Shown here: positions 30,201 to 52,200 of the stretch, piece by piece
Layout of the letters: each line of letters begins with the position of its first letter
How positions within the stretch are numbered: the stretch's first letter is position 1
From: Mustelus asterias
Taxonomy: Eukaryota
Direction: 5' to 3'
Assembly: GCF_964213995.1 (NCBI RefSeq)
Contig: NC_135801.1
Span: 17,918,001-17,982,000, forward strand
Length of the DNA: 64,000 bases
Translations under genes and position numbers: made by a program
Notes under the pieces: model-generated
Told to the model about the DNA's origin: nothing
The model's database searches: none
Seen by the model: only the letters and a program-made list of their open reading frames with translations

Positions 30201-33200
30201 CAAACTAGGAATCGAACCCAGGTCCCTAGCGCTGAGGCAGCAGTGCTAACCACTGTGCCACCCTAGTCCCTTCAGCAACACAATTTCCCTAGCCCAATTG
30301 CATGCAGGTGGGTAATTAATGTGAAGAGAAGGCTGCATGGTCATCCCTAACGTCAGCCATGATGAAGCTCAGCAATTGACTGCAAGAAATAAGTCTAAAG
30401 GGTTTCAAGGATTTTGTCAATGGTATTAAGTGGATGACCTTACTTGACCTCCTCTTGGGATCCCCATCATCCTAACCAGTGTTCACCCTATCCAGTTCAC
30501 TCCATGTAATTTTAACAAATGATTTGAGTGCAATGGACACAAAATCTACATGCCCTGCCAACATTCCATCTTCAGCTCTGACATGGCCACCAGAACTACC
30601 TGCTCCCCTAGTCAAGCTGTTTCAGTATAGCTGCGACATTGGCATCTCTTCAACAATGTGCAAGATTAATCAGATACATCTTATCTACTAAAACAGGGCA
30701 AATATATCCCCTAGTCAGTTCCTCTGCCACTGGGTTCAATGTACATCCCTCCATCACCACTACTATGTGACTGCAGTCAGCACGATCGAGAAGATGCACT
30801 GCAACTCAAAGGTTACTTTGACAGCACATTCCTCCTGCTGTCAGCTGTGCCACTAGGAGAGGGCATTATTGATGAAATGGGAACACCATCGCCTCCAAAA
30901 TTCCCCTCGATATGAAAGGCAATGCTTACTTGGGTGGATATCACCCCTTCTTCGTCGTCGCTGAACCATTATCCTGGACTTCTCTACTCAATGCTATTAT
31001 AAGAGAGCCATCACATTGATAGCAACAATTCAATGCAATTATGGATTTGAAGAATATTTTTAAATGTTGCTCAAATATGGAGAAATATTTTAAAGTGTTG
31101 CTCAACTATAGAGATCCTCTACTTGGGAGACTCATTCTTCTATCTGTATAAGTGAGCGGGGGTCTGGATTATCTTATCAGTGCTGGATAGTTCAGAACCA
31201 CAGAAAGAAGGTGACTAATACAGAGGCAGACAGAGACAGGATTCACAGGTGCAAGGAATTCAAGTGCCTGGAACCATTCAACTGACCCTGTGTATCTGAC
31301 AAATATCAAATAATCAGTGACTGCAATTGTGACTCCAGACAGGGTGTTTCTAAGCAACAAGGGTAGACAACAAGTATAAAAGAGTGATAATACATGGAAT
31401 CACAGGAATGATGGAAGTAGATTTGGGAGGCAATAAAACATTCAAAGACTTTCAAAGAAAGGGGGATTGGAGACAGAGAGGAAAGTGAGATTGGTGATGG
31501 GGATGTAGTTTTCAAGGATGGGAAGGGTTGGGGGGGGGGTAGGTTTGTTGAGGACTGTAGATTTAAAATGGAGGGAGATAGTACTTTGGAGCGGGAATCA
31601 TTTACAATACCTAGCATGGTGGGTCAGGAAGAGAAGTTGGATGGTCAGCAGTTTACTGAGAATATAGCTGAGAGAGCTGCAAGAAAACAAAGACTTGCTT
31701 TTCACGACCAATGGAAATCTCAAAGTTTTTTAAGCAAATGGAAGTACTTTAAGTGTAGTCATTTTTGTAGCATTGAAGGACATAATGAGTTCAGAGAGGG
31801 AAACTGGGGGAAAACTTGCATTCAGGGCTAGGAGAGGGAAAAACTTAAAGAAAACTTTGCTTGCAAGGCAATGTGAAAGGGAGTCATATGGCAAAGACAA
31901 CTGAATGCATTTAGAAAGGGGTTTAAAGAGCCAGCTGGTAGTGGAAAAAAAACTTGGGGGGAGGGGGGGGGGGTTATCTTTGTATTAAAGACGATCTTGG
32001 ATCAGTGAAATGTTTTTGCAGTTTTGGTTTAATAGTACTTGATGTGGCATGAATGGTAAAAGCATAAACATTCAAAACTCTGAAACTTGGAATTGAAAAA
32101 GCAAAAATTGAGTCTGTACTAAGTGAATCAACCAGGATGTCACTGGGAACAAAGGTATCAACAGTAGTAGAGATAAAGGATTGAGCAGATTGGGAGCCAG
32201 AACGTTGGAAGACTGGGGGAGCTGAATTAACTGCTTCTGTGGTAAAGCACCACACAACTAACATAATCTAACTAATAAGACACATATTTTGACTGCACCG
32301 TACAAGTCCTTCACACAAATAAAAAGGCATGCATTTATGGAGCACCTGCCACTACCTTAAGAAAGTCAAAAGCACTTTATGGACTCAGTTCTGACGACGG
32401 GTCATCCTGACTCAAAATGTTGGCTCTATTCTCTCTCCACAGATGCTGTCAAACCTGCTGAGATTTTCCAGCATTTTGTGTTTGTTATGGACTCTATTGT
32501 AATGTAAGAAATACAGCAGCCTGAGCACAACAAGGTCCCAATGTTAATAGCAATATGATAACAGTCAAATAAACGACGTGATGTTGGTTGAAGGATAACT
32601 ACTGGCCTGGACACCTGGCAGAGCTCCCCTCCTCTTCCCTGAAAAGTGCAGTTGAGTGTCTTTTAAAAAAATATTTATTCCTTTCTTAGAGTTACAAGGC
32701 TAATGTATAGTGTGGACTGCCCTTGCCCTTAATCCATCTCCTTGCTTGCTCCAAACACCAATTCAAATTGAATCCAATTTATGGTCCCCACGAGACAGAT
32801 ATACTCGATCCAAGCTGACAAGAACAGGCATTACACTTGATCGCAAGTTTGATCCTATATTTGAGTTTAGCCAAAAGGCCGAGATGTGACACCCACCTGA
32901 GGGTGCAGGCAAGACTCAGCGCATCCAAAAGACAGCACCTCCTGACAAAGTAGCACCCCGTCAGTGCTGCACAGGTGTGTCAGCCTAACCTGACACAGCC
33001 TCAGTGCTGCACAGGAGTCAGCATAACCTGACAATGTAGCACTGGCTCAGTGCTGCACTGTAGTATCAGTCTAACCTGACTATGGACACCGTTTAAAGCA
33101 TTTCAACCAAGACAGACCGAGGGGCCAGTAACTGTAAAAAAACCCTTGGATTGCATAACTGCGTGCTAATCTGTAAAAACAGCACACAGTGAAATGTGGC

Positions 33201-49200: not shown

Positions 49201-52200
49201 TGTACCCTGATGCATGTGGGTGGCTAGGTGAATGTGCAGAAGAATTACATTGACTGCAATTAAGATCTTCCCTCCTAACAATATTTCTAAAACCTCTTTA
49301 AAGGTTTCCCCTGAAACGACCAGAGCTCTGTAAGAAGTGGCTGGCTGCAGTCAGGCGACGTAATTTTACACCCACCAAAAACAGCAATCTTTGCTCAGAA
49401 CATTTCACGTTGGACTGTTTTAGAAAGAACTGTAACAACAAAATACTAGAAGAAAATGCTGTACCGTCCATTTTTTGCTTTACCCGACCAAATCAACAGT
49501 CAAAGGTAACTTTTTTTTGTTATTCGATTACAATGCAGAATAAGTTGATTAATATTGATCCAAACAAAATATGCTGGAAAATCTCAGCAGGTCTGACAAC
49601 ACATGTGGAGAAGGAATAGAGCTAGTGTTTTCAGTCTGGGTGACTTTGTCAGGGCAGATAACTAACTTTAAATGTAGCGCTGTCATTTTATAAGGTACCT
49701 TATACAGATTAATACACAGTGGTTCCAACCCATTCTATAGTTTTAATTAAAATTTTGATTGCATTGCTAAGTCTATGTAGAATGTAATGCATAATGATCC
49801 TATCATATTAAGATCCAACATCAGAAATTTGACACACACACCCATGAAATTAGCTATCACTTAAGCTATTCTTGATAGTGTTATTTGACTAAAAGTTAGC
49901 TAGGTCTCTCTTGTTTGGACGGTCTCATGGATTCTTTAACATTTACCTGAAAAATTAGAACAGAGAAATGACATTGGTTTAGTGGGCTGGAATCTGTTAG
50001 AGTTGGGCAACTTGATTTCTGCTCAGTTTGGACTTTTTCCTGAGCCCTTCAGCTCAAAGCCTTTTTGCTCTGTAACTACAAACTGAGAATGGTGCATCAG
50101 AGACCCCACTGCCCAACAGGACCATCAGTGTATCACCTTAACCAATAAGATTTAAGGATTGAAAAATGAACATAGGAAGGAGAGAGAATTAGAGTGGTTG
50201 AATTTGTCAAATAAGGTACAGAAAGAGGAATAGAAAGGAAATTAAAGGTTGGATTAAGAGTGAGAGGGGGATGTTAATGTACACCCGCTATTCAAAAAGG
50301 GAGGTAGAGAGAAAACAGGGAACTATAGATCAGTGAGCCTAACGTCATTAGTAGGAAAGTTGCTCGAGTACATTATCAAGGATTTCATAACACAGCATTT
50401 GGAAAGCAGTGGTGTAATCAGATAAAGTCAGCATGGATTTACAAATGGGAAATCATGCTTGTAATGGCATTCTTGTAAGTAGTGGAGATGACCAGGGAGA
50501 ACCAGTGGATTTATTTAGACTTTCGGAAGGCTTTCGACAAGGTCTCACTTAGCAGACTACAATGTGAAGTTAAAGCGCACAGGTGGCAGGTAATATCTTG
50601 AGATGGATAGAAAGCTGGTTAGCAGACAGGAAGCAGAATTGAAATAAATGGGTCTTTTTCTAATTGGCAGGCAGTGACTAAGTGGGGTACTGCAGGGATC
50701 TGTGCTAGGACCCCAACTGTTCACATTATTATTATAGAATCCCTGCAGTGCAGAAGGAGGCTATTCAACCCATCAAGACTGTACCAATGACAATCCAACT
50801 CAGGTCCTATCCTTGTAACCCCACGTATTTACCCTGCACAGCATAATGCCCCTGACACTAAGGGGCAATTTAGTATGGCCAATCAACCTAACCTGCACAT
50901 CTTTGGACTGTGGGAAGAAACCGGAGCATGTGGAGGAAACTGATGCAGACACCGGGAGAACATGCAGACTCCACAGTCACCTGAGGCCAGAATCGAAACT
51001 GGGTCCCTGGCACTGTGAGGCAGCAGTGCTAACCACTGTGCCACCGTGCTGTCTTTATATATTATATAACATGATATTATAATGATTTGGATGAGGCAAC
51101 TAAATGTATTATCTCAAGTTGGGTGGGAGGGTGAACTGTGAGGAGGATGCAGAGATGCTTCAGCATGATTTGGACAGGCTAAATGAGTGGGCAAATGCAT
51201 GGCAGATACTGTAAAATGTGGATAAATATGAGGTTATCCACTTCAGTTGCAAAAATAGGAATGCAAATTATTATTTGAATGGGCGTAAATTGAGAGAGGT
51301 GGATGCTCAGCGAGACCTTGGTGTCCTTGTGTATCAGTCGGTGAAAGTGAGTAGGCAGTAAAGAAGGCAAATGATATGTTGGCCTTCATAGTGAGAAGAG
51401 TTGAGTACAGGAACGGGGATGTTTTACTGCAATTGTATCGGGTGTTGGTGAGGCCACACCAAAGAATGAAATGAGACTCCACACTTTAAATTGTTCATTT
51501 TTTGCATCAGAGAAGTTGATTGGCAGTCATTTAGACTTATTGTACATTTATTACTTGACTAAACTTTCTGTGGCAAGTTTACTGGGCAAATGTAACAAAT
51601 TCATGAAACTCGGGGGAGAATAAAGGGGAAACGTTGTGTTCGCAGAGTGGTGCAAATGATCCAGCAATGCACTTGTGCCTCTTCACAAATTGTTGGCCAA
51701 TTTGTACATTAATAATGGAAGCGCAGTCCTCCTATCGATGGAGAATGCTATCTGTATTGCCCAGCCGCGTCTGTCCAAACTCTGTACTAAATACTTTTAC
51801 GTGGGAAGCAAAGGCACCACCGTTGTCCAAAACCAAGTGCACCTTAGCAACACTGGCATAAACATTGAACATCTAGTACACATTGTTAATTTACATGATT
51901 TTTATTAAAGAAGCAATGGCAGCACTTTTAAATCGCTTGTTCCTGTAGATGGAAAGAAAACATGTTAAATTTGAATTTTTCTTTCCCTCTCTTCTCTTTC
52001 CCTCCCCTCCCTCCCCTCCCTCCCCTCCCTCCCCTCCCTCCCCTCCCTCCCCTCCCTCCCCTCCCCTCCCCTCCCCTCCCCTCCCCTCCTCTCGTTCCTC
52101 AGCTTTCATTAATGGGTGTTGAGGTCACTTATAAAAAGCTTCCCTGTCTGAGTTTAACTAACTGGAGCAAGGATTGTTCCAAATACTCTGGTCAGTATGT

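Follow-up and report, generated by a model that had tools for sequence, protein, structure and literature searches.

Hammerhead-headed short repeats of Mustelus asterias as possible strong-stop-like insertions of a Neptune-like Penelope-like retroelement

In a 64,000-nt stretch of the Mustelus asterias genome (NCBI RefSeq assembly GCF_964213995.1, contig NC_135801.1, forward-strand positions 17,918,001 to 17,982,000; the whole stretch is hereafter called the window), three dispersed copies of a unit of about 100 nt begin at the 5' strand of stem I of a hammerhead ribozyme. The unit is near certainly the terminal pseudo-long-terminal-repeat (pLTR) segment of a Penelope-like element (PLE) bearing an open reading frame (ORF), and about half of the sampled copies of this family begin at a single point that lies 30 nt downstream of a TATA box. 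We propose, with our confidence in the account as a whole evenly poised, that an LTR-like TATA promoter would start transcription on the first base of stem I and that the PLE reverse transcriptase (RT) would prime internally near the RNA 5' end, so that the commonest product would be a stub that resembles strong-stop DNA and is integrated. Such stubs, in the tens of thousands, and head-to-head pairs of them would then record the start in DNA and would explain why productive copies depend on the pLTR site downstream, on a tandem template or on a template jump. Element positions are counted from C3 of the hammerhead core (position 0), with the 5' strand of stem I at -4 to -1, its 3' strand at +31 to +34 and the predicted cut between +30 and +31.

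A first-pass annotation, made from the window sequence, had taken the unit for a separate non-coding, retrozyme-like family. The unit instead forms the pLTR end of a PLE that bears an ORF. Among the 30 best matches to copy 1, several had upstream sequence in common, and an upstream walk from the unit crossed a 3' untranslated region of about 430 nt before entering, in turn, the GIY-YIG domain, CxxxxCxxC linker and RT of an ORF. Long copies extended 1.2-2.8 kb upstream into this RT, Cys-linker, GIY-YIG ORF, and of 30 loci retrieved with ORF DNA, 27 contained the unit. One decayed full-length copy (L262) carried the unit both before and after the RT and GIY-YIG ORF, in the manner of a partial-tandem pLTR with hammerhead: a 5' pLTR with TATA, hammerhead and tail was followed by the ORF and then by a 3' pLTR with the unit again. 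An ORF-bearing PLE with the same tail, of the kind that the first-pass annotation had suggested looking for, was found in decayed copies. The 5' hammerhead of L262 is interrupted by a later SINE-like (short interspersed element-like) insertion, which has an 11-bp direct repeat (minus strand, approximately L262:4000-4350). A seeming truncation hotspot about 1.24 kb upstream (L081 and L082) was set aside, as most of 30 further loci extended beyond it.

Domain support for the ORF was modest because its frames are broken. One segment (L264) matched RVT_1 with an E value of 2.7e-4, under the gathering score, and RT motifs were visible in broken frames; a Pfam scan returned no match for 4 of 5 decayed ORF pieces, the GIY-YIG segment among them, and a PDB sequence search with the RT segment returned nothing relevant. 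For GIY-YIG, the top three clusters of an Atlas feature search had this domain in 22-40% of their members (scores 0.95-0.96). We take the element to be an endonuclease-bearing (EN+) PLE that may be labeled Neptune-like, an assignment that leans on the linker motif and, in part, on which PLE clades occur in vertebrates. The CxxxxCxxC motif is located before the EN domain, and such a Cys linker motif is described as a mark of Neptune or Nematis PLEs (PMC8557442).

Judged by sequence, the short copies appear to have no lineage of their own apart from the autonomous element. Short and long copies were compared in a set of 171 at an identity of at least 82%, with the first 30 loci excluded (63 short versus 41 long in subfamily A, 53 versus 14 in subfamily B). 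In each subfamily their majority sequences agreed at all 95 sites compared, and no site separated short from long copies across these 95 positions, a length that gives limited power; the best P value for any site difference was 0.036, uncorrected. Within subfamily B, the mean identity was 94.6% for short copies versus 97.4% for long ones.

The family consensus is a minimal hammerhead, as read from position counts and predicted folds, and its core is intact in the family majority sequence. Scored in the 68 of 100 sampled copies that reach -3, the core CUGANGA, GAAA and UH elements were conserved, in keeping with the ribozyme proposed in the first-pass annotation, and the predicted fold contains both helix I and helix II. 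C3-G8 and the cut triplet GUU (U17 in 35 of 35 copies) characterize subfamily A, and subfamily B has U3-A8 (30 of 33) and GUC (C17 in 33 of 33); both have a helix I of 4 bp, a bulged A and a helix II of 5 bp, without loop III. The GAAA core does read AAAA in copies 1 and 2 of the window, as first annotated. Its explanation as CpG decay stands in part: the counts at the core CpG (CG 45, CA 12 and TG 4 in the 68 scored copies) fit decay, but with CA in excess a sub-lineage is also conceivable. Further down, at about +51 to +129, the tail and its extension are predicted to form a single long hairpin around both 3' end sites (in a fold made without a shuffle control), which is a candidate RT-binding structure.

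Copy ends were mapped in the first 100 genome matches of a 24-nt tail motif, a choice blind to 5' extent; 5' ends at -190 mark the limit of the subfamily B reference, 3' ends are bounded at +133 by the reference, and one 5' end (L192) is uncertain, at -399 or -476. Forty-nine 5' ends lay at -9 to -1, with 33 at -6 to -3 and the mode, 15 copies, at -4; 28 lay at -14 or further upstream and 23 at 0 or downstream. The ends thus peak at the ribozyme rather than scatter, as the window copies had led the first-pass annotation to expect. Near the cleavage site there was little: 2 of the 100 ends were within 3 nt of +31. The 3' ends were bimodal, 46 at +89 to +109 and 54 at +121 to +133, which is the two-site pattern of a PLE “tail.” Five copies (L149, L176, L184, L203 and L215) had their 5' ends inside the TATA box (-36 to -31), which may represent either a second small peak or AT-rich microhomology. 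Starts near the hammerhead were found in 25 of 58 solo copies of this family versus 3 of 50 in a second hammerhead-bearing PLE family that is also present in the window.

As first proposed, the short copies are true insertions with target-site duplications (TSDs) made by PLE machinery; TSD counts were above the null. Among the 58 solo copies, a TSD score of at least 8 was reached by 10 of 25 peak copies and by 4 of 23 longer ones, versus 1.2% of shuffled pairs. A larger set of 198 copies (59 long, 52 inverted and 87 short solo, including 30 chosen for likeness to copy 1) gave exact TSDs of at least 8 bp in 16 of the 87 short solo copies (null, 2.8%), and 10 of these 16 junctions lay at -5 to -3. 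Junctions so defined place the AG at -4/-3 within the insert and mark the stubs as real insertions.

The motif TATAAAT starts exactly 30 nt before A(-4) in both subfamilies, although their spacers differ. A pattern combining TATA box and unit had 6,452 genome matches (control, 169), with the exact 30-nt spacing in 94 of the first 100. The 5' peak stands at the upstream edge of the ribozyme, where the whole fold has already been copied, with the TATA box 30 nt above it, and this favors an RNA 5' end over a structure stall. We consider it reasonably probable that the copies starting at stem I are run-off cDNAs from internally primed reverse transcription. Transcription would start at the predicted TATA-driven site, -4, and RT priming would be internal, about 100 or 135 nt from the RNA 5' end, a possibility with in vitro precedent in an element of the anole. 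After priming at the first such site, the template would be exhausted at the RNA 5' end after about 105 or 137 nt, and the run-off cDNA would be inserted as a short stub that, being without an upstream TATA box, would likely be a dead end. The templates of stubs may be full-length mRNAs (in cis) or transcripts of solo pLTRs (in trans); mobilization in trans from promoter-bearing solo pLTRs is possible. If RT primed instead at the copy of this site in the 3' pLTR, the products would be longer and truncated at random. This agrees with what is seen in 30 loci whose sequence goes on beyond the tail in the direction of the ORF: the forward unit reaches the hammerhead in 7 of them, and the TATA box is reached in 0 of these 7. 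Two of the loci, L353 and L360, start at 0 and -4 and extend 0.9-1.3 kb into the ORF.

The family is abundant and rich in inverted pairs. The tail motif had 28,361 genome matches (control, 0); 45 copies were counted in 964 kb of blindly chosen stretches plus the window (40 in 900 kb without the window), and the estimate for the 3.68-Gb genome is roughly 160,000-170,000 copies, older relatives included. An adjacent inverted partner accompanied 42 of the 100 tail-motif copies. Head-to-head pairs had 1,865 matches genome-wide, and 16 of the first 50 fell into 4 of 30 possible lengths around a perfect AGCT-centered palindrome; such pairs could arise if two run-off cDNAs, or a fold-back, were joined at the self-complementary AGCT of stem I. 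The first 50 head-to-head loci span 0.48-70 Mb of contig C1, with 40 in its first 39 Mb, 10 in the next 31 Mb and none between 38.5 and 52.4 Mb, and pairs were sparse across G000:C1:105000000-145000000. Tandem arrays bearing the hammerhead, which had been suggested as something to look for, were not found in head-to-tail searches covering periods of 92-149 nt: these gave 51 and 48 matches, versus the 1,865 head-to-head ones, and consisted mostly of two hammerhead-less minisatellites and otherwise of isolated dimers. The repeat units of the minisatellites, 32-33 nt long, stem from the portion of the tail without the hammerhead (G000:C24:57918641-57919518 and G000:C11:96935664-96937176). In several of the isolated dimers the second unit restarts at AGCT or right beside it, which is what a template jump from the RNA end would produce.

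Several points weigh against this account. The 100 sampled copies all lie in the initial 7.2 Mb of a single contig, and the sample favors young copies. The start at -4 is placed from DNA sequence, and an extra G before the A, a possible trace of cap copying, was not in excess (6 of 57). An older family, C, often starts at the same point, and its 4-5 extended, decayed copies are without a clear TATAAAT at -30; moreover, because subfamilies A and B share ancestry, their TATA spacings are not two independent observations. The control offered by the second PLE family is partial, having been made by a different method, and by eye the inverted pairs of that family often join near its own hammerhead. 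Positions -4/-3 are also the AG of a pyrimidine tract and resemble a 3' splice site. As for related elements, Penelope of Drosophila virilis is described as having a TATA-less internal promoter (PMC2377424) and an intron that ends at the 5' end of helix I (PMC4209133).

Other origins of the fixed 5' end have to be weighed against run-off at an RNA end. The template may have been longer, with the RT stopping, or the 5' joint being resolved, at the upstream edge of the hammerhead without any RNA end at -4; a protein bound at that edge, or the self-complementary AGCT favoring fold-back and joining, could act in this way. A truncation hotspot of this sort would suit the frequency of inverted partners, many of them joined near AGCT, as well as the clustered lengths of the head-to-head pairs and the pile-up of family C without a clear TATA box. 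The first-pass annotation had put forward such a hotspot on a longer PLE as the simpler reading, and it came closer; the peak, however, sits on the ribozyme's upstream edge, with a TATA box 30 nt above it. A plain structure stall would be expected at the 3' edge, +31 to +34, which holds the 2 ends mentioned above, and solo copies with TSDs start at -5 to -3 too. The exact TATA spacing is left unexplained by a hotspot, and solo copies of the second hammerhead-bearing family show no pile-up. We regard this origin as unlikely, and as less likely still the production of an RNA end by processing at the AG of -4/-3, with short copies derived from spliced or mis-spliced RNA. The pyrimidine tract and YAG directly before -2 are present in A, B and C, and the D. 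virilis intron offers a parallel (PMC4209133), yet splicing should give an exon starting at -2 together with an upstream exon, whereas in inserts delimited by TSDs the TSD is followed directly by sequence that retains G(-3) and often A(-4); pyrimidines abound along the whole strand, and inspection by eye showed no good donor upstream.

An independent, non-coding, retrozyme-like mini-element with master copies of its own, moved in trans and possibly via circular RNA, would account for the uniform length and very high copy number, for TSDs in 10 of 25 peak solo copies, for the handful of head-to-tail dimers and for the slightly lower identity of short than of long B copies. It is nevertheless very improbable given that ORF-bearing elements end in identical sequence, that short copies are without diagnostic variants, that head-to-head pairs far outnumber head-to-tail matches and that the unit ends away from the cut site in stubs without a TATA box. 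A 5' end set by self-cleavage of the template seems hardly credible: the core is under selection (C3-G8 in A, U3-A8 in most B copies), but cleavage predicts ends at +31, the stubs hold the entire ribozyme, and the end distribution already contradicts it as the cause of the 5' ends.

The window itself holds three copies at the coordinates first annotated, on the strands first annotated (Table 1); BLAST against copy 1 recovered the other two with E values of 9e-25 and 2e-19. By their match to the subfamily A majority sequence (90 of 98 positions in copy 1, 87 of 97 in copy 2 and 79 of 95 in copy 3), all three are decayed members of subfamily A. The hammerhead of copy 1 has a helix I of 4 bp and a helix II of 5 bp, is without loop III, has G12 and C15.2 altered and would be cut after 32421. 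The annotated 10-bp TSD of copy 1 is indeed a perfect repeat. The 8-bp repeat of copy 2 was likewise found as described and, as it overlaps stem I, indicates microhomology shared by target and element; a seeming extension of this copy to -24 was judged to be a chance match in a pyrimidine-rich flank, because the repeat marks the target. Around copy 3, inspection by eye found no flanking repeat of at least 8 bp. An Rfam scan of the window returned no hammerhead match, since minimal variants escape the models.

Table 1. Copies and relics of the ribozyme-headed unit in the window, with their flanking repeats (positions are those of the window)
Feature	Coordinates	Strand	Remarks
Copy 1 (subfamily A), short pLTR-end insertion of the PLE	32387..32484	+	Element -4 to about +94
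Copy 1 hammerhead, decayed minimal type I (predicted)	32387..32425	+	Numbering as in PMC4209133
Copy 1 TSD (10 bp), 5' copy	32377..32386	+	Directly abuts A at -4
Copy 1 TSD (10 bp), 3' copy	32485..32494	+	Perfect direct repeat
Copy 2, short insertion, subfamily A	47114..47213	-	Core G12 and G16.2 altered; tail with 3-nt deletion
Copy 2 repeat (8 bp), 5' copy	47209..47216	-	Overlaps stem I
Copy 2 repeat (8 bp), 3' copy	47106..47113	-	
Copy 3, older short copy, core decayed	49561..49655	-	Starts at about -3; no TSD evident
Older relic of the unit, without hammerhead	4462..4543	+	Starts at about +40; about 70% identity
Relic with distal tail only	22501..22546	-	About +87 to +129

As the first-pass annotation held, the unit is distinct from another GIY-YIG PLE family in the window. 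The second hammerhead-bearing family lies at about 7046-7141 (an inverted pair), 34373 (minus strand), 35497 (minus), 58778 (minus) and 59893 (plus); it is about twice as dense (100 matches in 964 kb), and its solo copies truncate at scattered points. The inverted pair at 7046-7141 accounts for spurious microRNA matches in the Rfam scan. Also in the window, at 32930-34755 and 46296-46900, are tandem repeats of a 48-nt family and an extended low-complexity tract rich in G.

Much of what is seen here agrees with earlier descriptions of PLEs. In common with Neptune-type PLEs, the element has RT, a Cys-rich linker and, C-terminally, a GIY-YIG domain in its ORF, a partial-tandem pLTR with a hammerhead inside it, an optional 30-40-nt tail and an adjacent inverted, 5'-truncated copy; EN+ Neptune-type PLEs are, however, described as having high and variable 5' truncation (PMC8557442), whereas half of the copies here stop at one point, 30 nt below TATA. 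The ribozyme shares with the minimal hammerheads of metazoan PLEs its short helix I, a bulge between 9 and 10.1, G10.1-C11.1, the U3-A8 variant, a palindromic 15.2-16.2 without loop III and pairs on opposite strands (PMC4209133). Such hammerheads occur mostly as solo motifs, “probably related to truncated PLEs” in the words of that paper (PMC4209133); beyond that account, as far as its available sections go, copy ends have been mapped here and tied to a putative promoter. For PAc, a Poseidon element of Anolis, RT is reported to prime in vitro at two internal sites one tail apart and to extend both strands; the sites lie a little over 100 nt into an ORF beginning at the hammerhead (stem II), and the two-3'-end tail signature of PLEs is tied to internal priming (PMC11167929). 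The insertions described here likewise have two 3' ends separated by one tail length, slightly more than 100 nt downstream of the hammerhead, and extension of both strands would suit their head-to-head pairs. PAc differs in belonging to another clade, and run-off stubs are not part of that account in its available portions (PMC11167929).

Animal non-LTR retrozymes are defined by tandem repeats and circular RNA (PMC7229834; bioRxiv 10.64898/2026.07.22.740005). The present unit resembles them, as they are portrayed in these sources, in its type I hammerhead, its non-coding and PLE pLTR-related nature and its dispersed monomers, and differs in that no arrays were found at periods of 92-149 nt, its ends lie away from the cut site and ORF-bearing copies have the same sequence. 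A different parallel is offered by LTR retroelements, in which minus-strand strong-stop DNA, a short cDNA of fixed length, results from priming near the RNA 5' end and run-off. By analogy the stubs would be similar products, with the differences that priming here would be from nicked target DNA, not from a tRNA, and that the short product would be integrated. Only the fixed start and its link to a putative promoter go beyond the published work consulted, since the element itself, its ribozyme and tail, the inverted pairs and the solo hammerheads are all of known kinds; no description of the fixed start and TATA link was found in a literature search whose coverage left out subscription papers, repeat databases and supplements.

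How PLEs regenerate the pLTR and their tandem structure, and what role the hammerhead plays, are treated as open questions in work on PLEs (PMC2377424, PMC4209133 and PMC11167929). Our results caution against classing ribozyme-headed repeats of this kind as retrozymes. If the stubs are run-off cDNAs, they would account simply for the many solo minimal hammerheads of animal genomes, internal priming as seen in vitro would gain genomic support, and PLE promoters could be mapped from copy ends in DNA alone.

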